Below are positions 18,618 to 57,808 of a stretch of DNA of 57,808 bases, one piece after another. The position numbers were made by a program, and so were the translations under genes. This DNA is from a virus (lineage: Duplodnaviria; Caudoviricetes). The notes beneath the pieces are model-generated. The model saw nothing but the letters and a program-made list of their open reading frames with translations, was not told the origin of the DNA and made no database searches. Positions within the stretch are counted from its first letter, which is position 1, and each line of letters begins with the position of its first letter. Where the stretch lies: the IMG/VR virus record IMGVR_UViG_3300044695_002920, positions 1 through 57,808 of that record; one strand, 5' to 3'.

Positions 18618-21161
18618 CTACGGATTGGGGTTGATGCCGGTGCCAGTGGATACCGCCACACGCTCGCCGGACGCGATCTCGGCCTGCGCGAGCGCCATGG
18701 CCGTCTGGTTGTCCTGTGAGTTCATGGTCATGCGGGCCTGCAGCTCGGCGGCGGTGCGTGCGTCCTCGGCCTGCTGGCGCTGCTGCTCGATGGCGACCTT
18801 GGTCTGCAGCTCGGCGGCGTCCATCTGGGCGTCCTGCTGCATCTTCTGCGCCTCCATCTGCATGCGCTGTGCGTCCACCTGCATGTCCATCTGCGCCTTC
18901 TGGGCTGCCTGCTGTGCCTTCTGGCCTTCGAGCTGCAGCTTCTGCCCCTCGAGCGCGAGGCGCGGATCCTGCATCGGCGGCTGCTGGAACTGCTGCATGA
19001 TCTGCTGCGCCTGCTGGATGATCTGCGGCACCTGCTGGAAGATCTGCGAGCCCTCGGTCAGGGCCGTGGTCGACGCCTCGGCGAGCATGCGGTCGAGGGC
19101 CTTGCGTCCCTGCGTGTCCTTCGGGCTCATCTTGCGCATCATGTCGCCCAGATCCTCGCCGCCCAGCGCCTCGGTCGACACGTCGAACACGGTCGAGGCG
19201 TACCACAGGGCGACGTGCTCCTTGATGTGGTTGAGGATTGCGGGGATGTACACCGGCGCGAAGATCGGGTTCGATCCGAACGTCGGGCTGGTCAGGTAGC
19301 TAAGGTGCGTCTGCAGGTGCGCGAGGTGGTCCTGCTCGGGGAATGCCGTGACTGGTCGGCCCAGCGACGCGGCGACGTTCTCGTTGACCGCGTTCTGCTC
19401 GCTCGGCTCCATGGGCGGATTGAGCAGCTCCTTAGCGTTCGGGATCTTGAGCGTCTCGAGGAGACGCTCCTCGACCTTGCGCAGGTTGTAGAGCTGCGGC
19501 ATCGTGGCCGCGCGCTGGGCCACGGCCTGCACCTGAGCGTAGCGCTGCGCCTCGCTGAAGATGTTCGGGTCGGACACCGGCACGACGTCGAGCACGCCGT
19601 CGAAGTCTGCGCGCGTCGCCAGCTCCTCGCCCGCGTCCTTCTCGAGGCGCTCGTCGTCGAGGTTGAAGCCGTTGAGGCGGTCAAGGATGCGCAGCATGCG
19701 CCCCATCGCGTCGTGCAGGCGGCTGTGGATGGCCGAGTAGACCACCGCGCCCTGCTCGAGCTTAGCCAACGTGGTGCCGACTGGCGCGTTGGGGTTGCCG
19801 TCGGCGATGTCGTCCATGGACGTGCGGACCACGCCCTTGCCCGCCTCGACGAGGAAGCCGAGGAGCTGGAACAGGACGGGCGACGGTGGGTTGTACGGCA
19901 GCGGCATGGCCAGCTTGCGCACGTCGTCGACGTTGAGGCCGCCCTCGATCTCCTCGGTCTGGCCCGGCTGGATCGACAGGCTCTGCCCTCCGGCCGTGCC
20001 GCCCTTGAGCTTGAGCATAGTCTGGCTGTTGCTGATGTGCGCGCTGTCGAGCAGTGCGCGCAGCGCGCCGGTGGCTGCGCCGGACAGGCCGCCGATCATG
20101 TGCGGCAGGCCGATGGGGTACGCGCCGCGCCACGGGATGAAGGGCCACTCGACGAAGTGCTGCATCTCCTCGCGGTACTCGTCTTCCTCGTCCCAGTTGC
20201 GGTAGATCGCGAGCACCTTGCCGCTCGGCTTGTCGATGCTGATGATGTAGGGGCTGGCCTCCTCGTCGTCACCGATCCGCGCAATGGCGTAGATCTCGTA
20301 GACGATGCGCAGGCCGTCCTCGTTGTAGCTGGTCGGGTCGCGGCCCTCGATCTTGTCGTTGGCCACACCGGCCACGGACTGCTCCGGCTCCATGCCGGAC
20401 AGCGTCAGCTCGACGTCGCGGTACATGCCCTCGGCGACGCGGTCCTCATAATCGAGCTGCGTCAGGTACTGGACGTGCGTGCGCCGCTGCGCGGTGTAGA
20501 AGTTGGTGGCCGCGTAGGGCAGGTAGATGTCGTCGATCGGCACGAACAGGAAGGTCGGCCGGTTGCGCCGCTCGTCCCAGCCCAGCTTGAGGTACTGCGC
20601 GCCGCCCAGTGGCACCTGCGTCATGAGCTGCTCCAGCTCGGCGCGGACCTCGGGGCACTGCACGGTCATCTGCCAGTTGAGCAGGCTGCTCTTGCGCTTG
20701 GCCTTGTTGATCTTCTCCTGCGTCGCCTCGCCGGAGATGTAGTCCTTGGCCGGACCCTGCGGCGGGAAGATCTCCTTCATGGCACGCGCCGCGAAGTCGA
20801 CGCAGGCCTCGGTCATGAGCGGGTGGACGACCTTGTTCGCGCCTTGGAACTGCGCGCCGCCGGGCGCGTCGTCGCCCAGACCGGTGCGGCGTAGGCCCTC
20901 CTCATACTGCTCGTCGCGCTTCTTGCGCGCCTCCTTGTCGCGGGAGATCAGGTCGAGGAAAGTGCTCGACAGGTGCGCGAGTTCGGTCTCGGGCATCTCC
21001 TCGGCGAGGTTGGCGTAGAACTCGCTCTCGGCCGGACGCGGGCCCACGTCCTCGTCGTCGAGGCGGACGATCGCGCCGCCATCGGGCGTGTCTTCGACGT
21101 CGTCGTTGACGTCTGGCAGATCCACATACTCGCCCTCGGGCATCTCGTTCTCGTCGTCCAC
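18618..21161 (-). CDS. Portal protein (P22-like, long C-terminal Gln-rich coiled-coil barrel)
   Basis: 847 aa directly after terminase; VVHPLMTEACVDFAARA; Q-rich C-terminal helix. Confidence 0.9.
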   Translation of the reverse strand: MDDENEMPEGEYVDLPDVNDDVEDTPDGGAIVRLDDEDVGPRPAESEFYANLAEEMPETELAHLSSTFLDLISRDKEARKKRDEQYEEGLRRTGLGDDAPGGAQFQGANKVVHPLMTEACVDFAARAMKEIFPPQGPAKDYISGEATQEKINKAKRKSSLLNWQMTVQCPEVRAELEQLMTQVPLGGAQYLKLGWDERRNRPTFLFVPIDDIYLPYAATNFYTAQRRTHVQYLTQLDYEDRVAEGMYRDVELTLSGMEPEQSVAGVANDKIEGRDPTSYNEDGLRIVYEIYAIARIGDDEEASPYIISIDKPSGKVLAIYRNWDEEDEYREEMQHFVEWPFIPWRGAYPIGLPHMIGGLSGAATGALRALLDSAHISNSQTMLKLKGGTAGGQSLSIQPGQTEEIEGGLNVDDVRKLAMPLPYNPPSPVLFQLLGFLVEAGKGVVRTSMDDIADGNPNAPVGTTLAKLEQGAVVYSAIHSRLHDAMGRMLRILDRLNGFNLDDERLEKDAGEELATRADFDGVLDVVPVSDPNIFSEAQRYAQVQAVAQRAATMPQLYNLRKVEERLLETLKIPNAKELLNPPMEPSEQNAVNENVAASLGRPVTAFPEQDHLAHLQTHLSYLTSPTFGSNPIFAPVYIPAILNHIKEHVALWYASTVFDVSTEALGGEDLGDMMRKMSPKDTQGRKALDRMLAEASTTALTEGSQIFQQVPQIIQQAQQIMQQFQQPPMQDPRLALEGQKLQLEGQKAQQAAQKAQMDMQVDAQRMQMEAQKMQQDAQMDAAELQTKVAIEQQRQQAEDARTAAELQARMTMNSQDNQTAMALAQAEIASGERVAVSTGTGINPNP

Positions 21162-21172
21162 AGCTCAGTCCT

Positions 21173-22618
21173 TCATGCGGAATATGGGTTGCTATACTCT
21201 TTCGGCGACGCTCTGTCACCATCCCTGCTCACAGGGGGCTTGGTCAGCTTGATCAGGCCCTTGTCCATGGCCACGCGGATGGCCTGTGTCGTCTGGTCGA
21301 CATGGTCGTCGTGCTTGATGGAGTTGCCACCGGCGAAGGTGCAGAGCTGGTAGATCACCGGCTCGCACCAGTTGCGCGGCTTGCCGGGGCTCTTCTCGCT
21401 CTCGGGCATCCAGACGCGCTTCTGCGCGAAGATCGGCGAGGCGATGTGCAGGCGCGTCAGCTTGTCAGCGCGGCCGGGGTTGTAGGCGTAGGCCGTGATG
21501 CCCTCGCGCTCGAGCATCTGGCGCAGGCTGATGCCGCTGCCCTTGTCCTCGATCAGCAGCATGTCGGGCTTGCGTCCCGACGTGCGCGGCTTGTCGGATC
21601 CGAACATCGGCTTGATCAGCGCCGCGTCCTCGTCGTCGCCGTAGGGCGTGTTCATCTCCCGCTTCACGCGCTTCATCAGGTCGGGCAGGCCGAGGTGGTC
21701 CTCCCAACAGTCGAGCAGCATGATGTGGCTCATGCTCTTGTACTGGAAGACGCCCCACACGCCGCAGGCTGTCGGGTCGGGGTCGTGGCTCTTCTTGTCG
21801 ATGCTCTTCTCGGTGTAGGCCGTGTCGAGGCTCATGATGATGTAGTCGAACTTGGGCAGCGTGCGATCGGCGGGCCACAGGTTGATCCAACTGCGGCGGA
21901 TGATGCCCGCCTCCTCGGGATTGATCAGCTCGCCGTACAGCTCCTGCCGCCCGATTTTTGTCCCCTCATATTGTGCGAGCTTGTCGAAGAAGACGTCGGG
22001 CAGGTTGGCGCGGTTGTCGTATGTCGAGCCACGCACGATGATGCGCCCCTTCTTGGGTATCGTGAGCTGGCGCACGATCTCGACGGGGCGAGGCGTCGTC
22101 GTCCAGAGCAGGCGCGGGTGCTTGCCGAGGCGCAGGCCAAACTCGAGCATGTCGAGCGTGTACGTCGCGTCCTTGCCCCACGCCGCCAATTCATCACACC
22201 AAGCGTCGGCATGCTGTGGGCCGCGCAGGCGATCGGCCTTCTCCGCGCTGAAGCCGCGGATCTGCGCGCCGTTGACCAGCGTCAGGATGATGTCGGTCTT
22301 GTTGTAGTCGCGCACGCACTCGGGCGGGATGACGTTGAGCAGCCCGCTCTCACCCTCGAAGCAGACGAGCCGGACGTCGGCCTGTGTCGGGGCAACGACG
22401 CAGCGCGGGAAGGCGTCGGGATCGAGGTAGGCCGCGCGGCCCATCCACTCCGCGCCGACGCGCGTCTTGCCGAAGCCGCGACCGGCCATTGCGCCGAACT
22501 CGTTCCACCCGCTCTCGGGCGGGATCTGGTCGTCGCGAGCCGTGGCGAACCAGTCGGTCTGCCACAAGGTGAAACTCTTGAAGTGCAGCGACGCAGTATC
22601 GAGGTTGAGCGCGCTCAC
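21173..22618 (-). CDS. terL: Terminase large subunit
   Basis: Walker A AGRGFGKT, LRGPQ, Walker B AWCDE, TTTP coupling motif, SLDTA and HDDHVD nuclease motifs. Confidence 0.97.
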   Translation of the reverse strand: MSALNLDTASLHFKSFTLWQTDWFATARDDQIPPESGWNEFGAMAGRGFGKTRVGAEWMGRAAYLDPDAFPRCVVAPTQADVRLVCFEGESGLLNVIPPECVRDYNKTDIILTLVNGAQIRGFSAEKADRLRGPQHADAWCDELAAWGKDATYTLDMLEFGLRLGKHPRLLWTTTPRPVEIVRQLTIPKKGRIIVRGSTYDNRANLPDVFFDKLAQYEGTKIGRQELYGELINPEEAGIIRRSWINLWPADRTLPKFDYIIMSLDTAYTEKSIDKKSHDPDPTACGVWGVFQYKSMSHIMLLDCWEDHLGLPDLMKRVKREMNTPYGDDEDAALIKPMFGSDKPRTSGRKPDMLLIEDKGSGISLRQMLEREGITAYAYNPGRADKLTRLHIASPIFAQKRVWMPESEKSPGKPRNWCEPVIYQLCTFAGGNSIKHDDHVDQTTQAIRVAMDKGLIKLTKPPVSRDGDRASPKEYSNPYSA

Positions 22619-44262: not shown

Positions 44263-47200
44263 TTACCTCCGCATTTGCTTCACTGCGTAGCGGACAGGCC
44301 GCGCCGCAAAATTTATAGCCGCCTGACCGCGTCGCGTGTTCGCAAGCCTCTTGCCAGCCGCACCTGCACCCATCAGGATGGCAAAGTCTGCGGCGTTGCG
44401 CGGAGCATCTGCACGAATGGCCGACATCCGGTCGGATCCGGCCACCTTCGGATCGGGTTTAGCCTGCCCTGCCGAATACAATGCGCCCTGACCGAGAGCG
44501 TCGACAGCCCCCGCACCGAGGCGAGCGAGGCGACCAGCATTGCCCACTACCCGTGCGCCAGCGAGCGACGGGGCCAGAAGCGAGCCACCCAGCATGCCAG
44601 CACCCTCAAGCACCATGGCGGTGTTCGGGTTGGCCTTAGCATAGCGCTCCTGCAGCATGCGCAGGCGGGTTACCTCGTTTTCGTATGCGTTCGGATCCCT
44701 AGACGCGAGCGAGCGCAGCTTGGCCTCGATCTCGTCACCGAAACCGAAGGTCAGGCCCTGCCCCACTGTGCGGGCTGCGTTCGCGTAGTCATAGCCGCGG
44801 CGGGGCCGTCCGCCCTTCTTGAGCTGCTGCACGGAGCCGCCACGGGCCAGCTCCACGACGTTGCCTGCCTGATCCACGCGGGTGCCGTCAGGCAGCACAT
44901 ACGTGTCCGTATCGGCGTCGTACGCGCCTTCTGTGCCGAGGTCGATAGAGCCGCCCTGCGGCGCTGGGCTATTGACCGGCACCATATCCTCAAGCGGCAC
45001 ACCGTCTCCGCGTGTCAGCTCGACAACTGGGCTGCCGGGCATGCTGGCCTGCGGCGTGCGGTATATCTGCGGCAACTCTTGCGGGGCTGCGACTTCTTCC
45101 TGCCCCTGCGCGGCTTGAAGGCCCTGCGCACCAGCCATAAGGCTCTGGATGGTCATCCGGTTGTCACCGTACTTGGTGTTCAGGTAGTCAAAGGCGTCGG
45201 CGATCGGCTGGCCGCGCTGCGCCATGTTGGAAAACGCAGCGCCGATCGTCCTGTCGACCGCGCCCATGCCTTGCCCAGCTTTGTAAGCGGCCTCGCCCAT
45301 CAGGCGCGGAGACGTCAACGGCAGAGTTACCAGCGACGCGCCCGAGGTTGGGATGGCTGCCATCAAGCTACCGCCAGCACTTATCTGGCCAAGGCCGCGC
45401 GGTGTTTTTGCCGATAGCTGCTGCCCCGCCAGAGCGGGGAACAGCTCAGTCGCGCCTGCTGCTTCTAGCTCGCGGCCTAGCTCTACGCGTCGGCCATAGT
45501 TGGTGTTGGCATTGTTGCGCAGCATGGACTGCAGCTTGCGGAGCGAGGTATCGACCTGCGCGCCCGGCTTGAGCGAGAGCGTGCCTTCGATGTCGCGAAG
45601 TTTCTCCATGCCAAACTCGTAGTCCGCCATCACCTTGGCGTAGGCGGGCACCTGATCGTTGATGACCTTCTTGACCTCGCCATACACCCCCGACGCAATC
45701 GACGACGCGCGGCGGTTGTTCTCAGTCGCAAAGGCATTCGACAGCTCACCCAGACGCTGCTTCAGAGCGTCCATGCCTTCCGGCGTATGGAACTGATCAG
45801 GGGTGTCACCGTACCAATCGTCGACAATCGCCTTGGCTTTCTCGTACACGGCCGCCGCAGACGGGTTTACAACTTTGTTGCCCCTGAAAGCCCGGTCACG
45901 CAGCTTATCTAGGCGGTCGTAAATAGGCTGGAAGTCTAGGATGGTTTTGTCTTTTTTGACGTCTACCATGCCCGAACGGTAAGCCTCAGATGCCTGTGAG
46001 CGAATGTTCCCCACCGCCTCTTTGGCTTGCGTGAGGACAGTATCCAGATCTGCGCCGCCGCGCATGTTTTCGAGGAAGGTCTTAGCCCCTTCGCCCCCCA
46101 TGCGCCCAGCCTTAGCGGCCTCCTTCAGGGCGTCCGCTCCCGCGCCAGTGGTGAGCCCGACAGCCTGCGCCGATCCCTCTTGGATGGCCTTACCGGTGAG
46201 CGCCAACGCCTTAAACGGCGCGGAGGCAACGCGGGCAGTCAAACGGACGGGATCCAGCGTCTCGCTCAGTTTGGTGGCCTTTGCGATGTTACCCGCCTTA
46301 CCGAGGGCACCAGCGACTACAGTCGCGTCAGAAAGCACCTCAAAGGGGCGCTCTGCTAGGGCTGTCAGGAAACCGTTCTCCGTGCCGTACTGCGTGGCGT
46401 AGTGGTTGCCAAGGGCGGCGAGTGTCTCGCCGTCAGTGATGCCGAGGGCGTCGCCAGCCAGCTTGCCGATGCTGGTCACCGTCTCAGGCAGGTCTACGGT
46501 GAGGGCCTTGCCCGTTTCCGCAAAACTTTTGACGGCACTCATGGGCAGGTTAGCGACACCGGAGAGGGCCGCTTCCGGCCACGTAAGACCGCCGCGCGCA
46601 GCCTCGTCAATCTGCTCGTAGCTGAAACCGCCCCACTGCAGGCCCTTTTCCATGTTCTGGACAGTCTCGCGGCCCTTCGCAAGCGCGTCAGCCTTGAACG
46701 CATCATCGGGCTGGACACCGGACTGCACCGCACCAGCCGTTACGAGGTCTGCATACGCCTGCGGCGTAAGCTCTCCGCTTTGGTAAAGCGCGCGTATGCG
46801 GCCCGCAGTCTCTTCAGGCAGACGGTAGCCTTGGGTCTTGGTGGGGTCTATCCTCTGCAGCAGATCCGCCTCGACCTCATTGATGCCGCGCGGTTTCATA
46901 CCCAACTTGAGCAGTTCCGACGGCGAGGTGCCCCCGGCCATGCCAGAAATGAGCAAGTCGAGCATGGCGTACTTGGTTTCGATCGTCCTATCACTGTCGC
47001 CCGCTTGCGGGATGTAGGACATGAAGACCGCCATTTCCTTGTCGCTGTCGCCTTCTTTTGCGGACTGCGCGACGAGTGGTCGGATGAGCGACAGCATGGT
47101 GTCATTGGCTTTTGTAAAGCTCTCGAATGCCGGTATGGCGGGAACGACGCCGCCGAGTGTCGGTTTGTCGAAATACTCGGCGTAACCAAAAAGGCGAGAG

Positions 47201-47547
47201 GCGGGCTGCCCTTTGATGTCCCGCTTATACAGGCCGATGTTATTCAACATCTGCGCGCGCACGACGGCGGCGCGCTGCTCTATCCCGCTCCTCTTCGCCT
47301 CTAGAGCAATTTCCGTAGCGGTCTGCTTGGGGCCCTCTTGGGCGTCCTTTTCAGCTTTAGCGGCGTCGGCGATAGCTTTACGCGCGTCGGCTTCCGCCTT
47401 AGTGATCTGGGCCTTAACCGTCGCCTCACTCACGGCAGCGCCTGCCTGACCCCTGCGGATGTCGACCTCGCGTTTTGTTGCCTCCTGCGTAGCAGGGCCA
47501 CTCCACGTTGCGCCGGAAAGATCAATCTTTTCGGGTCCAGCCATCAC
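44263..47547 (-). CDS. Large DNA-ejection/internal virion protein
   Basis: 1094 aa, helical and A/G-rich; GQGLTFGFGDEIEA motif; operon position. Confidence 0.75.
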   Translation of the reverse strand: MMAGPEKIDLSGATWSGPATQEATKREVDIRRGQAGAAVSEATVKAQITKAEADARKAIADAAKAEKDAQEGPKQTATEIALEAKRSGIEQRAAVVRAQMLNNIGLYKRDIKGQPASRLFGYAEYFDKPTLGGVVPAIPAFESFTKANDTMLSLIRPLVAQSAKEGDSDKEMAVFMSYIPQAGDSDRTIETKYAMLDLLISGMAGGTSPSELLKLGMKPRGINEVEADLLQRIDPTKTQGYRLPEETAGRIRALYQSGELTPQAYADLVTAGAVQSGVQPDDAFKADALAKGRETVQNMEKGLQWGGFSYEQIDEAARGGLTWPEAALSGVANLPMSAVKSFAETGKALTVDLPETVTSIGKLAGDALGITDGETLAALGNHYATQYGTENGFLTALAERPFEVLSDATVVAGALGKAGNIAKATKLSETLDPVRLTARVASAPFKALALTGKAIQEGSAQAVGLTTGAGADALKEAAKAGRMGGEGAKTFLENMRGGADLDTVLTQAKEAVGNIRSQASEAYRSGMVDVKKDKTILDFQPIYDRLDKLRDRAFRGNKVVNPSAAAVYEKAKAIVDDWYGDTPDQFHTPEGMDALKQRLGELSNAFATENNRRASSIASGVYGEVKKVINDQVPAYAKVMADYEFGMEKLRDIEGTLSLKPGAQVDTSLRKLQSMLRNNANTNYGRRVELGRELEAAGATELFPALAGQQLSAKTPRGLGQISAGGSLMAAIPTSGASLVTLPLTSPRLMGEAAYKAGQGMGAVDRTIGAAFSNMAQRGQPIADAFDYLNTKYGDNRMTIQSLMAGAQGLQAAQGQEEVAAPQELPQIYRTPQASMPGSPVVELTRGDGVPLEDMVPVNSPAPQGGSIDLGTEGAYDADTDTYVLPDGTRVDQAGNVVELARGGSVQQLKKGGRPRRGYDYANAARTVGQGLTFGFGDEIEAKLRSLASRDPNAYENEVTRLRMLQERYAKANPNTAMVLEGAGMLGGSLLAPSLAGARVVGNAGRLARLGAGAVDALGQGALYSAGQAKPDPKVAGSDRMSAIRADAPRNAADFAILMGAGAAGKRLANTRRGQAAINFAARPVRYAVKQMRR

Positions 47548-48234: not shown

Positions 48235-50292
48235 TCAGATCCCCAATAGCTTGCTGAGAGCGGATCCAGCCTGCGCGCTTGATAGTATGCCGCCAAGACC
48301 AGTCAGCGCGCCGCCGATAGTCTCTGCGGTGCTCGGTCTCAGTTGCGGCTGGTAGCCCATAGGCACGATCCCCTCGTCGCGGCTGGCCACCGGTACGCCC
48401 GATTTGACGCCGCCGAAGGTCTGCAGCATCGCGTTGATCTGCTCCTGCGGGTAGCCCTGCTGGCGGAGGAAGTCGGCGTAGGCGACGTCGAGGTTCTTCT
48501 GCGCCTGCTCTTGCTGGATGCCGCCGACTTGGCCAAGCGCGCCTGCGCCAGTGAGGCCGAGGCGCTGGGCGTCCGCGCCAAGAGTGGCGAGCTGCTGTGC
48601 TCCGGCGAGGTTGCGAGTGAGATCCTGACCAGCGAAGCCACCGGCAGTCTGGCCCATCTGCGAGAGCAGACGCTGCTGCTCCTGCGTGATGCCAGCACCG
48701 GAAGCGCCGAGGGCCGCCAACTGCTGCGCGGCGCTGAGCGCGCCCTGCTGACCCGTACCGGCCAGCGTGCCGAAGCGGCCACCGATGTCGACCAGAGCCT
48801 GCTGCTGCTGCGCCATGAGGTTGCCGCCGATCTGGCCCAGCGCACCCGTCTGCTGCCCCGCCTGCGCGAGGGCACGCTGCTGCTCGGTGCCGAGCTGCCC
48901 AGCCTGCGCGCCGATGTTGGTGAGGGCCTGCTGCTGCTGCGTCGTGAGGCCGCCAAGCTGGTTGGCGATCGCGGCCTGCTGGTTGGCAGCCTCGAGCAGC
49001 GCCTGCTGCTGCTGGCCGCCCAGTACGCCGCGCTGCGTGCCGATGCTGGTGAGAGCCTGCTGTTGCTGCCCTGTAAGCTGGCCGAGCTGCGTGCCCACGG
49101 CGGCCTGCTGCTGCGCGGCCTCGAGCAGGGCCTGCTGTTGCTGCGAGCCGAGTTGGCCTGCAGTCCCAGCGAGCTGAGCCTGCCGCGCGAGGTCGGCTGC
49201 AGCCGCAGCCTGCGCCTCGCCATAGCCTCGGCTGAGTAGCTCACCCTGCTGCCTAACTGTTGCCTCCTGAACGTCGCGCAGGGCGCGAGCCGTGTCGGTC
49301 ATCATGCCCGAGGGCGTGCCGGATCCCGGCTGACGGCCACCAGCGCCGAGCTGGCCTGCGGCGATGTAGCGGCCCTCAATATCGGGCAATAGGTTCTCGC
49401 GCAGGTTGCGAGCGCCCAGCTCACCGACCTGCCTGACGACCTGCTCGGTGTAGGGGTTCATGTACTGGCTGATGTTGGCGACGCTCGTCTGGCCTGCCTG
49501 CCCGAGGTACGGTGCGGCAGCCGCGAGGCCGCCAGCGGCAGTGCCCTGCTGGATCGTGCCGAGGGCCTGCTGGTAGGCGGGCGAGGCGGCGCTGACACTG
49601 CTCAGGCGCTCGGCGGCGGAGAGCGTGGGCTCCGCGGACTGCATGCCCAGAGCCTGCGTGCCCTGCGCGGCGGTGCCCAGCGCCTGCTGGAAGCCCGGCA
49701 GGGCGGCGCTGACACCTGAGAGCTGGGCCGCTGAGCCGAGGTAGGGCTGCGCCGCCTGCTGGCCGAGAGCCTGCGTGCTCTGTTGCGCGAACTGCTCGGC
49801 CTGACTGAGGTAGGGGTGCGCGAGGTCGAAGCCGGACATGCCCGCAGCCTGCTGCAGATAGGGCTGCGCGGCTCCTACGACGTTGGTCTGTCCGGCCTGC
49901 GTCGTGAGGTTGCGCGCCGCGTCGTAGTCGCTGGCGGCGACGCCCATGGGGTTAAGCTGCTGGGCCTGAGTGAAGTAGGGCTGGGCGGCTGCCAGAGAGC
50001 CCGGAGCGCCCAAGGCACCCTGCGTCGCCTGCGTGGCAGCCGTGAGGGCAGGCTGATAGGCTCCGGCCGCCTGACCAGTCTGCGCGAAGGCCTGCTGCTG
50101 CGTGGGCGAGAACTCAGCGACGCGCGGACCCTGATAGGTCTGCAGCGGCTGCGCAGCCAACGCCTGCTGGTTGGAGAGCAACTGCATGGCGTAGTTGGTG
50201 TACCACTCAGGCAACACGCTCTCGCTGATCTTCGACGTGTATGTCGAGCCAGCGGGCAGCTCCCCGTTGTTGAGAAAATCACTGAGTGCCAT
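48235..50292 (-). CDS. DNA-transfer/pilot protein, Q/A/G-rich helical repeats
   Basis: YQGPRVAEFSPTQ, YMNPY, QQGYP motifs; C-terminal hydrophobic Gly-rich helix. Confidence 0.75.
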   Translation of the reverse strand: MALSDFLNNGELPAGSTYTSKISESVLPEWYTNYAMQLLSNQQALAAQPLQTYQGPRVAEFSPTQQQAFAQTGQAAGAYQPALTAATQATQGALGAPGSLAAAQPYFTQAQQLNPMGVAASDYDAARNLTTQAGQTNVVGAAQPYLQQAAGMSGFDLAHPYLSQAEQFAQQSTQALGQQAAQPYLGSAAQLSGVSAALPGFQQALGTAAQGTQALGMQSAEPTLSAAERLSSVSAASPAYQQALGTIQQGTAAGGLAAAAPYLGQAGQTSVANISQYMNPYTEQVVRQVGELGARNLRENLLPDIEGRYIAAGQLGAGGRQPGSGTPSGMMTDTARALRDVQEATVRQQGELLSRGYGEAQAAAAADLARQAQLAGTAGQLGSQQQQALLEAAQQQAAVGTQLGQLTGQQQQALTSIGTQRGVLGGQQQQALLEAANQQAAIANQLGGLTTQQQQALTNIGAQAGQLGTEQQRALAQAGQQTGALGQIGGNLMAQQQQALVDIGGRFGTLAGTGQQGALSAAQQLAALGASGAGITQEQQRLLSQMGQTAGGFAGQDLTRNLAGAQQLATLGADAQRLGLTGAGALGQVGGIQQEQAQKNLDVAYADFLRQQGYPQEQINAMLQTFGGVKSGVPVASRDEGIVPMGYQPQLRPSTAETIGGALTGLGGILSSAQAGSALSKLLGI

Positions 50293-53200
50293 TACAAACG
50301 TCCTCCGGCCATATAGTGCTCAGGCCTCTTCGCATTTTCACTGAACTCACCGCGAGCGAGCTTGCGGCCCTTCTGTTTCCTTACGTTCACGCGGAACTTG
50401 TCAAGCATCTGCGCGCCCGCCTTGTTCGAACCGTTGCCCAGAAGCGCAACTGTTTCGGCGTCTATAACATATTCGCCGTCAGAAAGCAGCGCCGGTATTT
50501 TATCGTCGCGACCGTCTCCAGCCCCCTCGACGGCAAAGCCGCCTCGGGCGTAGCCGGTGTAGGCTTTGCTGGTGTTGCGCGCGCCCTGCGGCACGTAATT
50601 GAAGAAGCTCTGCTCCGGCCCGTAGCCATAGCGGTAATAGTCGATCGGCGCGCTAAGGCCCCGAGCCGCAAGGTCGCTGGGCGAGCGTGCGCCGCTTCCA
50701 CCTCCGCCGACACCGAGGCCGGGCAGGTTGGCTGGCGGGAGCTTCGCGCCAAAGATCGGGTTGAGCCTGCCCATGGTGCCCGGCACGTTGAACTTCTGGC
50801 TGCCGCCACCACCGCTGCCAGCGAGGCCGCCCAGTAGGCTGCTCAGCAAGCCCGCGATGCGCAGATAGTCGGCGATGTCTTTGAGGGTCGTGTCCTTCTT
50901 GGCTTCGGGCTGCGTCGCGCCATCGCGAGCGCCGGTGAAGCCCAAATCAGTGCGCGACGTAACCATGGGCGGCGTCACAGGTATGGACGTCGGTTGCTCA
51001 GGTACAGTCGTCTTATTGCCAATTACATTTATGCCCTCCTCGTAAGTGACAGGAGGCAGGCCGCCCGATGTTATAGGCAGCGTAACTGGGACAGATGGCG
51101 GCAGCGGCGGCGCATTGTTGCCCGTAACGACGATCTGGTCAGGATCTGTCGGCTGTTGAGCCGCATCGAGTGGCTGCGGTATCGGTACGGGCTGCGGCGA
51201 CGGCGCGAATATCGATGGCAGCGGAACAGACGGCATCACCTCACCACCTGTGACGACGATATCCCTGTTTTCGGGTGCCGCCTCGGGTTGCGCGGGTTGC
51301 TGAACCACACCGGCATCGAGCGGCTGCGGTATCGGTATGGGTTCCGGCGACGGTGTGAATATCGGCGCAGGGATGGGTATGCTCGGCGTCACATTGCCGC
51401 CCGACACAACGATCTCGCTCTCTTCAGGAGCTGCGGGTTGCTGCGGCGCGCCCGCATCGAGCGGCTGCGGTATCGGTATAGGTTCCGGTGACGGTGTGAA
51501 TATCGGCGCGAGGTTGACGCTTGGTGCTGCATTGCCGCCCGACACGACGATCTCGCCCCCGAGGGTATCTGCTTTAGCGTCGCCAGCCACATTCGAGCCG
51601 CTGCCAGCGCTAATCGGCGTGCTCGGACTTACGCCGCCGGTAGTGGTTATGGTGTTGGTCGCCGCATCATAGACACCTGATCCCCCCGGCAGTGTGATGC
51701 CTAACTCCTCGGCCACGCCCGGTATGACGTACGATGCCGCACCAGAGGCCAAGCCGCCGAGCAGTGAGTTCTTTAGGTTCTGGCCCGTCGCAAGACCGCC
51801 AGCAGTCGCGCCGAGACCTGTGCCGACCGCGCTGGCGGCCTTTGTTGCGCCCAGAGCAGGGCCCAGTATAGTGCCGCCTGCCGTCGTGAGGCCGCCCATG
51901 ACAGCGCCCTTAAGCGGGTCGCCGCCAGATAGCGCATTACCTGCTGCGCCTGCCGCAGCCGCCGCTGCGATCTGGGCAGGGACGCTCAGACCGCCGGTCA
52001 GGACCGCTGTGGCGATGGGAAGCGCGAAGCCTGCAATCTTACCGAACACACCGAGGTCGCTGCCCTTCGGGTCATCGTCGGCGATGCGCGACCACTGGCC
52101 GTCCTGATCCGAGCGCTCAAGATACCAGTCAGCCTTGGTGCCACCCTCGGCCGACAGGCGCTGCGCTGCGGCATAGGCGTCGCGGAGGCCCTGTTCGCCC
52201 ACGCCGCTGGTGAGAATGGCATTCTGGCCCCGCTCGTTGACGAGGCGGTAGGTGGCGTTGGGGTCGAGGCTTACGAAGGCGGTGGGGTTGGCTTTCGTCT
52301 TCGCGGGCTTACCGGCGTTGGTGACGAAATAGTAACCCTGCTGTCCGTCGTTCGTGACGAAGTCCAAGCCCGGCGTCGCGCTGGGCTTGCTGTACTGTAT
52401 CACGGTCTCCGGCGTCGGGCGCACCGTCGGTCGCGGGCCTGTGATGGCGTAATCCTCTGGCCCCATCAGGGGGTCAGTCATGTCGCCTACCGGCGCGTTG
52501 TAGTCGGCAGGAACGACGGCGTTCGGCATGCCTATCTGCTCGCTGTACACAGGCTCTACAGCGTAGGGTGCGCCTACCTGCTCAGCCGGTGCGCTGGGCA
52601 CTGGCTCCATGCTTACAGGCGCGCCGACTTGCTCACCGGGCATTGGGTAATTCACCAGAGCGGAGTAGTCAGGCGCGACGTAATCAGACACGCCGTAATC
52701 CAGTGGCGCTGGCTCTACGGCGTAGGGCGAGCCTGTCTGCTCGGCCGGTGCGCTGGGCGCTGGTTCTACGGCGTAGGGCGAGCCTGCCTGCTCAGTATAG
52801 GCTGGTTCGACGTAGGGGTTGTAGGCAGGCTCCACGCCGCTGGGCGCTTGCTCGCTGTACACCGGCTCCGAAGCATAAGGCGAGCCTACAGGCTCGTTAT
52901 ACACCGACGGCATGGATACCGAAGGCGTCGCGACGTAATCAGACGCGCCGTAGTCCAGCAGCGAGGGGTACTCGACTGGTGGCGTGTACGCGGGCTCCGA
53001 GTACTGCGGAGGCGTGTAGATGGGCTCGTTATAGACAGGCGGCGCATACTCGACTGGCGGCGTGTAAGCGGGCTCCGAGTACTGCGGGGCCGGTTCGTTG
53101 TAGACAGGCTCGTAGTACTCCACCGGAGACGTATACTCGGTCGGAGGTGTGTAGGCGGGCGGAGTGTACTCGACGGGCGGCGTGTAGGCGGGTTCGCTGT

Positions 53201-54599
53201 ACACGGGCGGCGTGTATACCGGCTCAGGCGCTGTGTAGACAGGCTCCGAGTACTGCGGCGGCATCGCGTAGTCGACCGGCGGGGTGTACTCAACCGGCGG
53301 CGTGTATACCGGCTCGTTGTACACGGGCTCGTTGTACACGGGCTCGTTGTACACGGGCGGAGTGTATACCGGCTCGTTGTACACGGGCGGGGTGTATACC
53401 GGCTCAGGTGCTGTGTAGACAGGCTCCACGTACTCAACAGGAGACGTGTATTCGACCGGCGGCGTGTATTCGACCGGCGGCGTGTAGACGGGCTCCGCGT
53501 AGGTGGGCGGAGTGTACTCGACGGGCGGAGTATAAACAGGCTCGTTGTACACGGGCGGAGTGTAGACAGGCTCAGGCGCTGTGTACACCGGCTCGTTGTA
53601 CACAGGCTCGTTGTACACGGGCTCGTTATACACCGGCTCGTTATACACGGGCGGCGTGTACTCAACCGGAGGTGTGTAAACAGGCTCGTTATACACGGGC
53701 GGAGTGTACTCGACTGGCGGCGTGTACTCGACTGGCGGCGTGTAAGCAGGCTCGGGCGCTGTGTAGACAGGCTCGTTGTATACCGGAGGCGTATACTCGA
53801 CTGGGGGAGTGTATACCGGCTCGCTGTAGGTAGGTGCCGTGTATACCGGCTCAGGCGCTGTGTATACCGGCTCAGGCGCTGTGTAGACAGGCTCGTTGTA
53901 TACTGGCGGCGTGTACTCGACAGGAGGCGTGTAGACAGGCTCGGCGCTGACAGGCGCGCTGGTCTGTGCAGGCTCGCCGTACATCGACTGGAGGTACTGC
54001 AGGTAGGCGAGCATCGACGCGTAATCGAATGCCACAGGTGTTGGCATTTCAGGTGGCGAGCTTACCGGCGGTGGGGGCGGAGGTGGTGTGTACGCGGGCT
54101 CCGGTGCTGTATAGACAGGCTCGTTATACACGGGCGGAGTGTAGACAGGCTCGTTGTACACGGGCGGCGTGTAGACAGGCTCGTTGTATGCAGGCGGATT
54201 GTATACCGGCTCGTTGTACACGGGTGGGGTGTAGACAGGCTCGGGCGCTGTGTAGACAGGCTCGTTGTATACCGGAGGCGTGTACACGGGCGGGGTGTAT
54301 ACCGGCTCGTTGTACATCGGCGGCGGAGGTGCGGAGTAGATAGGCTCGTTGTACACGGGCGGGGTGTATACCGGCTCGTTGTATACCGGAGGCGCGTATA
54401 CCGGCTCTGAGTACATCGGCGGATTGTAGACAGGCTCCGAGTACATCGGCGGGCTGTAGACAGGCTCGTTGTAGATCGGCGGGCTGTAGACAGGCTCGTT
54501 GTAGATCGGCGGCGTGTAGTTCCACATGCCGTAGTCAGCCATACCGTAGTCAGGCGAATACATGAAGTCTGATAAGCCGGGGATATAGTATTCGTCCAT
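50292..54599 (-). CDS. Ejection protein with Tyr/Pro repeats, Gly-zipper hydrophobic region and TonB-box-like repeats (1435 aa)
   Basis: TGATG coupling sets the start at 54599; C-terminal GDGRDDKIPALLSDGEYV motif. Confidence 0.8.
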   Translation of the reverse strand: MDEYYIPGLSDFMYSPDYGMADYGMWNYTPPIYNEPVYSPPIYNEPVYSPPMYSEPVYNPPMYSEPVYAPPVYNEPVYTPPVYNEPIYSAPPPPMYNEPVYTPPVYTPPVYNEPVYTAPEPVYTPPVYNEPVYNPPAYNEPVYTPPVYNEPVYTPPVYNEPVYTAPEPAYTPPPPPPPVSSPPEMPTPVAFDYASMLAYLQYLQSMYGEPAQTSAPVSAEPVYTPPVEYTPPVYNEPVYTAPEPVYTAPEPVYTAPTYSEPVYTPPVEYTPPVYNEPVYTAPEPAYTPPVEYTPPVEYTPPVYNEPVYTPPVEYTPPVYNEPVYNEPVYNEPVYNEPVYTAPEPVYTPPVYNEPVYTPPVEYTPPTYAEPVYTPPVEYTPPVEYTSPVEYVEPVYTAPEPVYTPPVYNEPVYTPPVYNEPVYNEPVYNEPVYTPPVEYTPPVDYAMPPQYSEPVYTAPEPVYTPPVYSEPAYTPPVEYTPPAYTPPTEYTSPVEYYEPVYNEPAPQYSEPAYTPPVEYAPPVYNEPIYTPPQYSEPAYTPPVEYPSLLDYGASDYVATPSVSMPSVYNEPVGSPYASEPVYSEQAPSGVEPAYNPYVEPAYTEQAGSPYAVEPAPSAPAEQTGSPYAVEPAPLDYGVSDYVAPDYSALVNYPMPGEQVGAPVSMEPVPSAPAEQVGAPYAVEPVYSEQIGMPNAVVPADYNAPVGDMTDPLMGPEDYAITGPRPTVRPTPETVIQYSKPSATPGLDFVTNDGQQGYYFVTNAGKPAKTKANPTAFVSLDPNATYRLVNERGQNAILTSGVGEQGLRDAYAAAQRLSAEGGTKADWYLERSDQDGQWSRIADDDPKGSDLGVFGKIAGFALPIATAVLTGGLSVPAQIAAAAAAGAAGNALSGGDPLKGAVMGGLTTAGGTILGPALGATKAASAVGTGLGATAGGLATGQNLKNSLLGGLASGAASYVIPGVAEELGITLPGGSGVYDAATNTITTTGGVSPSTPISAGSGSNVAGDAKADTLGGEIVVSGGNAAPSVNLAPIFTPSPEPIPIPQPLDAGAPQQPAAPEESEIVVSGGNVTPSIPIPAPIFTPSPEPIPIPQPLDAGVVQQPAQPEAAPENRDIVVTGGEVMPSVPLPSIFAPSPQPVPIPQPLDAAQQPTDPDQIVVTGNNAPPLPPSVPVTLPITSGGLPPVTYEEGINVIGNKTTVPEQPTSIPVTPPMVTSRTDLGFTGARDGATQPEAKKDTTLKDIADYLRIAGLLSSLLGGLAGSGGGGSQKFNVPGTMGRLNPIFGAKLPPANLPGLGVGGGGSGARSPSDLAARGLSAPIDYYRYGYGPEQSFFNYVPQGARNTSKAYTGYARGGFAVEGAGDGRDDKIPALLSDGEYVIDAETVALLGNGSNKAGAQMLDKFRVNVRKQKGRKLARGEFSENAKRPEHYMAGGRL
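52560..54525 (-). repeat. Coding tandem repeat of 15-21-bp units (YNEPV/YTPPV/YTAPEPV)
   Basis: Recurrent GGCTCGTTGTACACGGGCGG-type units on the plus strand. Confidence 0.95.
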
Positions 54600-54832
54600 C
54601 AACCTGTACTTTCGAGCATCGGATAAGCGCGCATTGCCCATTCGCGCCAGTCCGAGAACTGGTAAGGATCAGGAAGGGTGCGCTGCGTAAAAGGAGACGC
54701 GCGTACAAGCCCCGTTGCCCAATCGCGCCACGCAGCTTCTTCGGGAGGCCTCCCGAATGACCACGCATCGCCTACGACCAGTATAACCGAAGAAGCCCAG
54801 TCTTGCCAAGACATTCCGAGGGGATTTATCAT
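54599..54832 (-). CDS. Small Trp-rich conserved tail-module protein
   Basis: WQDWA..WRDWA..PDPYQFSDWREWA; coupled at both ends. Confidence 0.75.
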   Translation of the reverse strand: MINPLGMSWQDWASSVILVVGDAWSFGRPPEEAAWRDWATGLVRASPFTQRTLPDPYQFSDWREWAMRAYPMLESTG

Positions 54833-56610
54833 CCCAAAGTCGTGCTATCGCCGGGCTGGAGGTGCGCGAGCACCAGACCCATCTGAAAGTCGCCCCCGAG
54901 CGTGTTGCTCTCGAAGCGGAAGCGCAGCTCGCGGCGCTGGGTTTTCAGGAACACGACCTGCTCCTGTGGCGTCGCCGCAGTCTCTGTGATGAGCACCGGA
55001 TCCCCATTCACCTCCTGCGCTCGGGCGTTGGCGCGGCCGCGCACCTGCACCGTCATGTCGCCGCTCTGTACGAAGTCAGGCTCGAGCATGAGCACCTGCA
55101 GCGCCTTGTTCTGTTGTGTCGACACCGGCAGCGACAAGTCCGCCGTCTCGAAGTAGGATTTGATCGGGTTCAGCAGCAGGCCGTCAATCTCGTCGGTGCC
55201 GACCTCGTGGACCCAGAACTTGTAGGGCTGCTCGAAGACAATGTCGAAGGTGGCACCTGCCCCCGCGCCGCCAGTCACGTTCACGGGGTTGCTCGGGATC
55301 TCGGTGTAGCTGCCCGCATTGCTTATGGTCACGCCAGTCACCGCGCCGCCTGCGCCTATGGTGGAGACCGTGAGTTCCGCGTTGATCTGGCCGAAGCCGC
55401 CTGACACTGTCAGGATGTTGCCCACGGCGTAGCCAGTGCCGCCGACGACCACGTCAACCTCGAAGGCGGTGAACTCTTGCGGCTGCACGCCCGACATCAG
55501 GGGCTTGCGGAAGACGGCAGGGAACAGGCCCGCGCCGCGCCCCTCGTTCGGCAGCGCCGTGTCGTACCATATGTTTTCGCGGACGTTGTAGACAATGGCG
55601 TGGTTGGGCTCCTCGCTGTTTCCGAAGGGGAAGCACCACCAGATCTCGCCAAAGCGCGGCACCTTCATGGCGAAGACCTTCTGCCGCTGGGCGAAATTCA
55701 GATTGTCGAAGAAGAAGTTGAGATTGAGGTTGTTTTCAACCTCGCGCACGACGCCGTTGAACATCAGGAAGCGATCGGTGCCGATCCAGTAGAAGACGCC
55801 GTCATACTCGATGACCGACTGCGCGGACAGGATCGACGACTGCGAGCTGATCGTGTCGAACTGGAATAGCGCCGTGCCGCCGATGTAGCTGGCGCGGATG
55901 AGGCTGTCTGCCGACCAGAAGAGGCCCGAGGGGCTGTTGCCCGGTCCACCGCGCAGGGGCATGCCGCGCACAATCTTCTGACCCGTGACGTAGGCATTGC
56001 CTGCCCCTGAGCCGGTGTAGTCGTCGGGCTTGTTGGGCACCGACCACGCGACGTAGCCGTCATTGCCGAAGGCGAAGGTGTACGGAGCCAGCGTCACAAC
56101 GCCGCCGGTGCAGTTGAAGTTGGCGGGCTTATTGAGGGCGGGTACGGCAGTCAGCACGCCGGTGCCGAGGAGGTCGCCCGTGAAGATCTCACCCGCGTCG
56201 CTGTTGCAGATGCAGTTGAGGTTCGGGGCGACCTGCGCGACGATCTTGTTGCCGGAGGCGGTGTCGTAGGCGACGGTGAACTGCCAGAGATTGGCGTCGC
56301 TGGCCGTGAAGCCCGTTGTCGGCGTGCGGTCGGTGATGACGCTCGTATTGTACGTGCCGTCGATGAAGAACCGCTCGACGCGATTGGCTGAGCCCGCGTG
56401 CACGTAGGTCTGAAGATCCTGCGTGTACTCCAAGAGCGTGCGCGGCAGGCCGCGCAAGAACTTGTTGATCGAGCGGTAGCCGCCCATCTTCCTCGGCAAC
56501 CCGCGCTGGAAGCGCACCCACTGCCCGTCGACATAGTTGTCGCCTTCGAACTTGGTGCCGTCCCGCTTGATGCCGGGTGCCGATTTGATTTGGGCAATTT
56601 GCTCAGCCAT
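54829..56610 (-). CDS. Tail nozzle / head-closure beta-propeller protein (P22 gp10 / tubular B-like)
   Basis: PGIKRDGT, WVRFQRGLPRKMGG, FYWIG..F..FNG, FGEIWWCFP, VYNVRENIWY. Confidence 0.75.
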   Translation of the reverse strand: MAEQIAQIKSAPGIKRDGTKFEGDNYVDGQWVRFQRGLPRKMGGYRSINKFLRGLPRTLLEYTQDLQTYVHAGSANRVERFFIDGTYNTSVITDRTPTTGFTASDANLWQFTVAYDTASGNKIVAQVAPNLNCICNSDAGEIFTGDLLGTGVLTAVPALNKPANFNCTGGVVTLAPYTFAFGNDGYVAWSVPNKPDDYTGSGAGNAYVTGQKIVRGMPLRGGPGNSPSGLFWSADSLIRASYIGGTALFQFDTISSQSSILSAQSVIEYDGVFYWIGTDRFLMFNGVVREVENNLNLNFFFDNLNFAQRQKVFAMKVPRFGEIWWCFPFGNSEEPNHAIVYNVRENIWYDTALPNEGRGAGLFPAVFRKPLMSGVQPQEFTAFEVDVVVGGTGYAVGNILTVSGGFGQINAELTVSTIGAGGAVTGVTISNAGSYTEIPSNPVNVTGGAGAGATFDIVFEQPYKFWVHEVGTDEIDGLLLNPIKSYFETADLSLPVSTQQNKALQVLMLEPDFVQSGDMTVQVRGRANARAQEVNGDPVLITETAATPQEQVVFLKTQRRELRFRFESNTLGGDFQMGLVLAHLQPGDSTTLG

Positions 56611-56621
56611 TAGAAGGACAC

Positions 56622-56780
56622 TTAGCCCCCTTCTGCATCATCCTGCGCAGGCACTTGCGCTTCGGCCTGCTGCTTGATCTTTACGACGAGGGGCCACGCG
56701 CCGGAAGACGTGGGCAGTGCGCCCAGTGTCTGCAGTACGGCGTTGATCTCGTCTACGGTAAGGTTCAGATTGATTTCCAT
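56622..56780 (-). CDS. Small protein downstream of the fibre chaperone (52 aa)
   Basis: MEINLNLTVDEINAVLQTLGALP...; TAATG coupling. Confidence 0.75.
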   Translation of the reverse strand: MEINLNLTVDEINAVLQTLGALPTSSGAWPLVVKIKQQAEAQVPAQDDAEGG

Positions 56781-57109
56781 TATGCGCTCCATGGTAATGG
56801 GGGTGTGACTACCGGCGGCACGACTTGGTCGTTGATCTGCTGGGCCACATTTGCTTCATACGCGGTAACTTGGTCTTCGCCAAGTGCCGACTGCACCCAG
56901 CCAACAACCTGCGCTTCGGTAAGGTCCGCATAGGGAGTGAAGGTAGCGCCCTCGTCGAGGGTCACGCCGACCGAGCCATAAACGCCGCCGGAGAAGCCAG
57001 CTTCCTCACCGGAAAGGGTCCAGTGTACGGTAAAGACCACATCGGTGTGGTTGTCATATTCGGGGTAACAATCAAGTTGGACGACGCCCCATGTGTAAGA
57101 TACAGCCAT
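56780..57109 (-). CDS. Tail-fibre-associated protein
   Basis: FTPYADLTEAQVVGWV...PLPW; directly follows the fibre gene. Confidence 0.75.
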   Translation of the reverse strand: MAVSYTWGVVQLDCYPEYDNHTDVVFTVHWTLSGEEAGFSGGVYGSVGVTLDEGATFTPYADLTEAQVVGWVQSALGEDQVTAYEANVAQQINDQVVPPVVTPPLPWSA

Positions 57110-57110
57110 T

Positions 57111-57808
57111 TTACTTCCTTTCTTCGAGTTGCGCCACACGGGCACGTAGACTTTGAATTTCTGCAATCAGGAGCGGGATAAGCACCTGATGATCGACCTG
57201 CTGGTAGTCCGGCGTTCCGTCCTCGTTGACGGCATCCTTTTCGCCTGTGACTGCATAAGGCACTACTTCCTGCGCTTCGTGAGCAACAAGCATAGGCCGC
57301 TCTATGGTTGCGTCGTGCATCTTTCCGGTGTGGACCTTGAGCGCGTCGATGGTCGTACCGGTATTTTCAACCGGACCGAGGATATTCTTGGCGCGGTAGT
57401 CCGAGGTGGTGTTGTATGCCACCAATCCACCTGCACGGTTGTAGGTAATTGAACCCCGTACCGAAGCCCCGGCTTCGGTGTAGAACTTAATAAATACGTT
57501 ATCGCCGGAAGTTGCTGCGTTCCATGCCGCGATAGTGTCGACGGTCGTGTCACTATTCCTGAACACCCCGGCGCGAGCGCCTGCAGTTGCGGTGTCTACT
57601 TGGACCTTATCATCAGCACCCGCAATGCCACTCGATATCCCAACCAACAAATTCCCGCTGCTGGTGATACGGGCGCGCTCAGTGTTAGCGCCGCTGGCGT
57701 AGAAGACGAGGCCGCCACCTACATTGCCCACCCCAGACGAGCTAACTCCGGTGGGGTTAAAGGCCAGCTTAGCCGTGTTGGCCGTGCTAGTTACGAGTAC
57801 GTTGGCGT
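57111..57808 (-). CDS. Tail fibre C-terminus with intramolecular chaperone (peptidase S74) domain
   Basis: TTSDYRAK cleavage motif, VAHEAQEVVPYAV, LIAEIQSLRARVAQLE coiled coil. Confidence 0.9.
   Translation of the reverse strand, partial: ANVLVTSTANTAKLAFNPTGVSSSGVGNVGGGLVFYASGANTERARITSSGNLLVGISSGIAGADDKVQVDTATAGARAGVFRNSDTTVDTIAAWNAATSGDNVFIKFYTEAGASVRGSITYNRAGGLVAYNTTSDYRAKNILGPVENTGTTIDALKVHTGKMHDATIERPMLVAHEAQEVVPYAVTGEKDAVNEDGTPDYQQVDHQVLIPLLIAEIQSLRARVAQLEERK
57384..57808. repeat. Terminal overlap, copy 2
   Basis: Matches 1-425. Confidence 0.95.

Follow-up and report, generated by a model that had tools for sequence, protein, structure and literature searches.

The virus record IMGVR_UViG_3300044695_002920 (Duplodnaviria, Caudoviricetes) in the IMG/VR database is a stand-alone virus of 57,808 bp that CheckV rates as complete. 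The whole of this stretch was analysed and is termed here the window. One of its open reading frames (ORFs), P0001, is located on the minus strand at positions 50292..54641 and translates to 1449 amino acids (aa). It displays in its C-terminal half a tandem array of four to five copies of a short motif of the type [ED]IVV[ST]G, which closely resembles the TonB box of alphaproteobacterial TonB-dependent transporters (TBDTs). The array may mimic the TonB box of the host and bind TonB; this proposal is drawn from sequence comparison and we hold it at slightly less than an even chance. It is the best supported reading because the peptide that is under selection in the phage protein family marks, almost exclusively in the genomes sampled, the docking strand of transporters.

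Five motifs had been picked out in a sequence-only reading of this DNA, and a coordinate map reproduced all of them exactly, within one minus-strand ORF. Copies 1 and 2 are both EIVVSGG and are found at aa positions 1030–1036 (51534..51554) and 1076–1082 (51396..51416). Copy 3, DIVVTGG, is at aa 1127–1133 (51243..51263), copy 4, QIVVTGN, is at aa 1169–1175 (51117..51137), and a degenerate copy 5, GINVIGN, is at aa 1203–1209 (51015..51035), all on the minus strand. The start-to-start spacing of the motifs is 46, 51, 42 and 34 aa. Three Pro-rich spacers of the form IF(T/A)PSP(E/Q)P(I/V)PIPQPLDA sit between the first three motifs and after the third (minus-strand positions 51453–51503, 51312–51362 and 51162–51212, with an overall span of 51162..51503); one version of the spacer, IFTPSPEPIPIPQPLDA, is present twice and the other, IFAPSPQPVPIPQPLDA, once. 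An acidic lead-in, QQPAAPEESEIVVSG, is present, and the lead-ins of the array consist of Ala, Pro, Gln and acidic residues and resemble those of the transporters. By translation and composition, the Pro-rich spacers, the acidic lead-in and the Gly/Ala region that precedes the array are as the sequence-only reading described them.

The units of the array are direct repeats at the DNA level, 126–153 nt long with 63%–87% identity, and at the protein level an alignment shows three good and two degenerate units. The copies are tandem duplicates and are thus not independent of one another within this gene. The stronger case for the motif comes from the protein family, as the family conserves the motif and not the spacers.

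HMMER searches with aa 860–1449 as the query yielded 4848 cluster representatives at an E-value of 1e-3 or less, 1973 at 1e-10 or less and 260 at 1e-30 or less. The family is known solely from metagenomes, with the exception of a cluster of cultured Caulobacter phages (the RW/GB2A cluster), and the nearest clusters in the ESM Atlas are viral where an origin is recorded. Motif statistics were obtained with 252 homologues, in which the core I[IVL]V[ST][GA] occurs 244 times, compared with 2.2 ± 1.5 times (maximum 6) in 50 shuffles, and a looser form of the motif occurs 300 times, compared with 23.6 in shuffles. At least one copy is present in 165 of the 252 proteins; those with zero, one, two, three, four and five copies number 87, 82, 46, 27, 5 and 5, respectively. 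The sites are situated 235–486 aa from the C-terminus (5th–95th percentile), i.e. always in the same linker. Positions that the motif pattern leaves unconstrained show the following residues: D (29%), N (18%), G (17%) and E (16%) at position −2, E (36%) and D (24%) at position −1, and R (24%), K (19%) and P (16%) at position +6. The flanks beyond these positions are unconserved.

At least one strict copy was found in 41 of 66 distinct IMG/VR relatives (80 loci), across a range of 49%–68% GC. The two relatives with the lowest GC content (49%–52%) have EEVVVTG[KR]R, and those with higher GC mostly have [DE]IVVTG. Copy number differs among close relatives, e.g. three copies in a relative with 91% identity and five in one with 74%; thus the array appears to expand and contract quickly. 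Over the family the spacers have become unrecognisable whereas the motif persists, and this argues for selection on the motif and not for recent duplication alone.

The sequence-only reading had stated that (E/D)IVVT(G/A) following an acidic Ala/Pro lead-in is typical of alphaproteobacterial TonB boxes, and comparison with transporters bears this out. A sample of 251 genomes of one class, chosen by starting from a Rhizobium locus, was screened for Plug domains, and five TBDT-rich alphaproteobacterial genomes with 43–55 Plug matches each were selected. The 30 best N-termini were read. Four loci (L026, L027, L035 and L041) were dropped, since the longest frame in each is an antisense artefact, leaving 26 N-termini. 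These align on a block located just before the Plug domain, e.g. LDEIVVTAQKR, VDEIVVTAEKR, TEVVVTGSRI, EEIVVTARP, DTIVVTGA and ETIVVTGTD; a few boxes are divergent (PTISVQG, DTVFVFE). The transporter consensus, [DE]EIVVT[GA]x[KR], is the same as the logo of the phage family, including the basic residue at position +6.

A search with the back-translated pattern [DE]IVVT[GA] gave 49 sites in three of the TBDT-rich genomes (15, 18 and 16), and the reversed pattern gave 3. At least 37 of the 49 sites are in transporter N-termini upstream of a Plug domain (42 sites were examined, 30 of them read). The transporter sites have a signal-peptide-like start, the motif is 27–84 aa from the first Met (for sites with a Met upstream in the open frame) and is followed by Plug-like sequence, and the frame is open for at least 505 aa.

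Scoring matrices were built from the 26 transporter boxes of the TBDT-rich alphaproteobacterial genomes. With a 7-column matrix, copy 4 of the window array scores 13.8 bits, copies 1 and 2 score 11.9 bits each and copy 3 scores 9.8 bits; the interquartile range of left-out transporters is 11.7–18.0. The degenerate copy 5 scores 8.0 bits, which is within the shuffle range. In 300 shuffles of the array protein, the best site has a mean of 8.8 bits and a 95th percentile of 11.8, and the fourth-best site never exceeds 8.8. With a 12-column matrix, 163 of the 252 family proteins are above the 99th percentile of shuffles. None of the other window proteins (21 ORFs scanned) scores above 10.3 with the first 12-column matrix, for which the 99th percentile of family shuffles is 11.2.

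The array is in a Pro-rich linker, delimited by composition and an AlphaFold2 model at aa 1001–1235 (50937..51641, minus strand; 21% Pro, net charge −17). No secondary structure is predicted for the array in the model, made with a 46-sequence alignment, and the pLDDT (predicted local distance difference test) is about 30–45. The model is poor overall, with a mean pLDDT of 48, and low confidence is an indirect sign of disorder. Folding of the repeats into a self-contained domain, which the sequence-only reading had set against its own proposal, is not predicted (AlphaFold2, low model confidence). On the N-terminal side is a Gly/Ala-rich hydrophobic region at aa 861–1000 (51642..52061, minus strand; composition and AlphaFold2), with 21% G and 21% A, one clearly hydrophobic segment at about 863–888, and glycine-zipper-like stretches; this is modelled as 5–6 helices and the mean pLDDT of 10-residue blocks is up to 88. 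On the C-terminal side is a second hydrophobic Gly-rich segment, KDIADYLRIAGLLSSLLGGLAGSGGGG, at aa ~1253–1280 (50802..50885, minus strand), which is kept across the family. As judged from the model, the array is probably a flexible tether between two membrane-active-looking segments and not a folded repeat domain.

A mechanism can be proposed from this arrangement. The large virion protein is probably released into the envelope of the host during infection, where the probably unstructured Pro-rich stretch between the two hydrophobic, Gly-rich, membrane-active segments would present its four to five copies of the motif. In the periplasm each copy could add a beta strand to the C-terminal domain of TonB, in the manner of the TonB boxes of transporters, colicins and pyocins. 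The protein would thereby be coupled to the ExbB-ExbD-TonB motor, which is driven by the proton-motive force (PMF), and the motor would most likely pull or position the protein, together with the channel it may help to build, across the periplasm. The motif, its conservation, its agreement with real TonB boxes and the position of the gene are shown by the analysis, and from these we infer the ejection, the exposure in the periplasm, the binding to TonB and the effect of binding; for the exposure, the basis is the place of the gene among putative ejection genes and the hydrophobic segments on both sides of the array. Pulling or ratcheting is judged the most natural effect, because the serial array lies between two membrane-active segments. 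In a more specific and rather doubtful form of this mechanism, which might apply to tailed phages of TonB-rich Gram-negative hosts, the host motor would act as an external winch: the serial TonB boxes of the ejected protein would be engaged one after another, and with each PMF-driven pull more of the unfolded protein, including its membrane-inserting segments, would leave the tail and traverse the periplasm. Genome delivery would thus receive the energy for its first step. Instead of pulling, the array may position a conduit at the inner membrane or may serve as a decoy.

Several observations weigh against TonB-box mimicry. A single score near 12 bits with the 7-column matrix arises in about 5% of shuffles. 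With the 12-column matrix the copies score 11.4, 7.8, 7.1 and 4.9 bits and the degenerate copy scores 8.4, all below the shuffle 99th percentile of 13.3; these scores are low because GGN or GGE follows the core at the positions where transporters have x[KR]R. The window copies thus agree with transporters in the 6–7-residue core only. The motifs are also in the C-terminal half of the protein and not at the N-terminus, as in transporters and bacteriocins. Of the 42 genomic sites examined, five do not belong to transporter N-termini: three fall within other proteins, and the frames of the remaining two are short and probably spurious. The strict motif is absent in 87 of the 252 homologues, and in many of 45 that were inspected a variant is in its place, e.g. 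SLIRVTGNK, GLIDVKASK, DIVVKANR, EDIIKVTGER, EEILVEARK, NEIVVEGTRK or GEIVVSNKY. Further relatives have EVVVEGG, EVVVKPE and ELKITAD, and variants such as EVVVEG, EIVVTP, IDVKAS and IIKVTG are carried by many relatives. The cultured relative GB2A has VDEIVVTP and the weaker VDPVVVNP and VDELVIKP, in which Pro takes the place of the Gly or Ala of transporters.

In addition, IMG/VR contains an unrelated phage protein in which a unit of about 22 aa, of the type ASIVVTGTADPRRR, is repeated roughly 30 times in tandem. IVVTG strands are therefore not exclusive to TonB boxes, and the sequence may simply be a good strand. This unrelated protein is 958 aa in length (L095:3435–6308, plus strand; it is also present at L096), its repeats of the form ..GTASIVVTGTADPRRR.. 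precede a C-terminal globular domain, and it is possibly a fibre. A search of IMG/VR with a two-copy DNA pattern gave only 2 loci, both encoding this repeat protein, although the pattern is too codon-specific for absence elsewhere to be judged.

One unit of the array (aa 1108–1150) was co-folded with the C-terminal domain of a stand-in TonB, in a run that had no controls, and the score of 0.04 (mark, 0.34) bears on binding in neither direction. The stand-in comprises residues 105–200 of the product of a 200-aa gene situated beside two exbD genes in the TBDT-rich genome G017.

The main rival explanation, possible but less probable than TonB-box mimicry, is that the motif is a generic short beta-strand element for docking or assembly, and that its likeness to the TonB box arose by convergence on the same chemistry, i.e. 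an acidic cap followed by beta-branched residues. The partner could be inside the phage (the portal, the core or tail channel, another ejection protein, or the protein itself, by self-association into a trans-periplasmic conduit), or it could be a host partner other than TonB. The tolerance of the family for K, E and N at the Thr position, for Pro at the Gly position and for an extra residue (IIKVTG) is consistent with such an element, and so are the window flanks, which differ from those of transporters, and the use of IVVTG as a structural strand in the unrelated repeat protein. The variation in copy number from 0 to 5 can be read in the same way, as can the lack of an array in Pag-Yong1, HTVC027P, L009 and L010. 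This explanation leaves unaccounted for, however, the match of the commonest form of the motif to the transporter consensus beyond the core (D/E at −2/−1, G/A at +4, R/K at +6) and the finding that at least 37 of 49 genomic occurrences of this very peptide are transporter boxes. Moreover, the absence of predicted structure and the unconserved spacers would be unusual for a fixed structural assembly.

A role as a TonB decoy, by which the array would occupy TonB and so shut down TonB-dependent uptake or exclude TonB-dependent phages or bacteriocins, is improbable. The sequence evidence for it is the same as for TonB-box mimicry in general, and several boxes per chain would raise avidity. However, the gene is in a late structural block, so that the protein, when newly synthesised, would be in the cytoplasm, and a signal peptide was not noticed (no formal test for one was made). 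Only a few ejected copies would reach the periplasm, probably too few to titrate TonB, and the gene context is not that of an early, exclusion-type gene. It is equally improbable that the array is a flexible Pro-rich spacer that varies by tandem duplication and whose motif is kept by descent with no specific partner: the units are tandem DNA repeats and their number shifts among close relatives, but the family keeps the motif while the spacers diverge beyond recognition, with a strict copy or more in those 41 of 66 distinct IMG/VR relatives at 49%–68% GC.

The remainder of the array protein was analysed for composition and domains. Translation probably begins at position 54599, where an ATG overlaps the stop codon of the upstream 77-aa ORF as TGATG, and gives a protein of 1435 aa; the ESM Atlas version of the protein begins at residue 15. 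Residue numbers used here follow the longer ORF of 1449 aa. The N-terminal part, aa ~40–640 (52722..54524, minus strand), consists of approximately 600 aa of EPVYTPPVYN-type repeats, as seen from composition. These are of the EPVYTPPVYN/EPVYTAP pentapeptide type, with 27% Pro, 17% Tyr and a net charge of −72, and one may speculate that they form an extended rod. The repeats are absent from most homologues, and among the homologues listed a match to the Pfam family Extensin_1 is carried by two, P0041 and P0119. A relationship with extensins was considered and rejected: the window protein scores 104.2 bits with Extensin_1 (PF02095), below the gathering cut-off of 105, and the likeness is a compositional one between Pro/Tyr repeats. 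The next part, aa ~641–860, consists of a degenerate acidic/Pro stretch and then a small domain that is visible in the consensus of the 46-sequence alignment.

The C-terminal domain (aa 1320–1449; 50295..50684, minus strand) is conserved in the family alignment and includes a module of about 50 aa, DDKIPALLSDGEYVIDAETVALLG (..IPAxLSDGEYV..), at aa 1365–1421 (50379–50549, minus strand). The module recurs in the tape measure proteins of many siphophages (169 phage records, the majority of them from actinophages) and is widespread in proteins that are annotated as tape measure proteins or are placed among ejection genes. Its carriers include phages of Mycobacterium, Arthrobacter, Gordonia and Corynebacterium as well as short cyanophage and pelagiphage proteins; it is also present at L094:4282–6201 and is doubled in a relative from Manatee Spring. 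The array protein shares this C-terminal module with tape measure proteins (phrog_6090, phrog_25241). It differs from them in that it matches in the module only, the rest being Pro-rich and largely unstructured, and its identification as a tape measure protein was rejected. Only residues 1365–1421 (57 of 1449) match phrog_6090 (E = 6e-6), and outside the Gly/Ala helices the model is mostly unstructured, with no long helix. No tail-tube or sheath family was recognised among the 17 window proteins scanned, which cover part of the genome. A prohead-protease cleavage site was rejected as well, since no likeness to the site of that protease was seen.

Distant relatives that have no array are the Planktothrix phage Pag-Yong1 protein (295 aa), gp82 of pelagiphage HTVC027P (340 aa) and the proteins of the low-GC contigs L009 and L010. 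In all of these, both the hydrophobic region and the C-terminal module are still present. L009 and L010 have an extra N-terminal region with GGDTMLAHINPREA, which is absent from the window protein. The lengths of the relatives extend from 295 to 1449 aa; the hydrophobic region and the C-terminal module stay constant, and the family swaps other modules around them.

A PHROG scan of the window recognised a large terminase (21173–22618), a portal (18618–21161), a capsid/protease-like protein (14774–15691) and a tail fibre ORF (1–4890, minus strand), as well as a primase-helicase, a DNA polymerase, a helicase and an exonuclease. The tail fibre ORF is open at the start of the window and encodes no fewer than 1630 aa, of which the N-terminal 388 share 49% identity with GB2A gp068c. 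Another ORF is open at the other end of the window (57111–57806, minus strand), and its frame differs from that of a simple circular junction. The frames of these two ORFs indicate that the record, though rated complete, is cut within or beside the fibre gene. A small protein at 56780–57166 (minus strand), located between the fibre end and a 593-aa virion protein, has a clear match to DUF7936 (E = 2.3e-30).

In P22-type podoviruses, ejection genes occupy a position after the tail-completion genes and beside that of a lytic protein, and the position of the array gene is comparable: it follows the tail fibre gene and a gene resembling that for a phage stabilization protein, and precedes a gene for a ‘lytic tail protein’, as in GB2A. 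The gene order of GB2A (gp069c, tail fibre gp068c, gp067c, gp066c, gp065c, gp064c, gp062c) is kept. The array gene is the counterpart of gp065c, which carries a ‘tape measure’ annotation, and the final ~160 residues of the two proteins are 49% identical. Upstream is the virion protein of 593 aa (54829..56610, minus strand), which has as homologues gp067c and the Manatee Spring ‘phage stabilization protein’, and the 77-aa ORF directly upstream of the array gene is the counterpart of gp066c. Downstream is a Gln-rich protein of 685 aa (48235..50292, minus strand), homologous to gp064c, which probably belongs with the array protein to one block of ejection genes. It is rich in Gln, Ala and Gly, has many QQQAL-type repeats and no family assignment, and there is an ATGA-type stop-start overlap at 50292. 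A protein of 1094 aa (44263..47547, minus strand) is homologous to gp062c, the ‘lytic tail protein’. In the Manatee Spring relative (phage ctpbd312) the block consists of the ‘phage stabilization protein’, the homologue of the array protein and, at the end, an SLT transglycosylase.

The label of ejection protein, given to the array protein in the sequence-only reading, is a reasonable inference from this gene order, whereas homology to P22 gp7, gp20 or gp16 or to T7 gp14–gp16 was not found in Pfam, PHROG or the PDB sequences. A functional name for the array protein or its neighbours was likewise not found in Pfam, PHROGs, the PDB sequences or the ESM Atlas, where only weak matches to the tape measure module were obtained. 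Plug and TonB_C genes were not found in the window, a stand-alone virus record. Matches in the genome collection are phage-sized contigs within metagenome-assembled genomes whose labels name conflicting phyla; other matches there, in Rhizobiales and Streptomyces genomes, are to the C-terminal module only. Among isolates, the closest are RW, RLK, KcrB and GB2A, phages of Caulobacter vibrioides for which PMC11053796 proposes the genus Riverwalkvirus.

TonB-box mimicry can be compared with known systems. The transporter box of TBDT-rich Alphaproteobacteria, [LV][DE]EIVVT[AG]x[KR]R, shares with the phage motif the core peptide, the acidic lead-in and a setting that is probably flexible in the phage protein; the logo of the phage family agrees with it even at position +6 (R/K). 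BtuB and FhuA carry TonB boxes. A transporter has one box, at the mature N-terminus and directly before the Plug domain; the phage protein, in contrast, has up to five boxes in a linker of its C-terminal half, no Plug domain and no barrel, and in the window the flanks are GGN. Group B colicins use TonB boxes of their own for import. According to PMC10994204, pyocin S2 likewise presents TonB with a box of its own, and the proton-motive force then pulls the pyocin in. The phage protein, in the role suggested by its motifs, would resemble these bacteriocins in being a foreign protein with its own TonB box. It differs in that each bacteriocin carries one box, at the N-terminus, and passes through a transporter, whereas the phage protein has a tandem array, would be delivered by the tail and has no sequence homology to them.

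The ejection proteins P22 gp7, gp20 and gp16 and T7 gp14, gp15 and gp16 are similar to the array protein in gene position, the presence of a lytic or transglycosylase-type neighbour, large size and membrane-active segments. Those of P22 are said to form a trans-periplasmic conduit. They differ from the array protein in that there is no detectable homology, and TonB-box-like motifs are not described for them in the literature searched. The g3p protein of filamentous phages reportedly binds TolA and thus offers a parallel, that of a virion protein docking on the periplasmic domain of a PMF-linked, envelope-spanning system. The system in that case is Tol and not Ton, folded domains touch one another with no repeated linear motif involved, and filamentous phages are of an unrelated type.

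The sequence-only reading knew of no phage protein with a TonB-box array of its own, and none was found among the papers listed in full-text searches of open literature; in the same literature, the combination of TonB box and tape measure led only to papers on T5 and FhuA. It is plausible that the use of a TonB box by a phage virion protein is new, the use by foreign proteins being known previously from bacteriocins.

It is an old question by what means, and with what source of energy, short-tailed phages bring their ejection proteins and the leading DNA through the periplasm. Because cultured relatives exist (the RW/GB2A cluster, which grows on Caulobacter vibrioides CB15), the idea can be approached by ordinary phage genetics, though with a weaker form of the motif. 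If TonB-box mimicry is correct, hijacking of the TonB motor, a strategy so far seen with colicins and pyocins, would offer an answer, open to experiment, that applies to uncultured freshwater phages of a very large group. It would also predict new routes to phage resistance, by mutations in tonB and exbBD, and a new class of natural TonB ligands.

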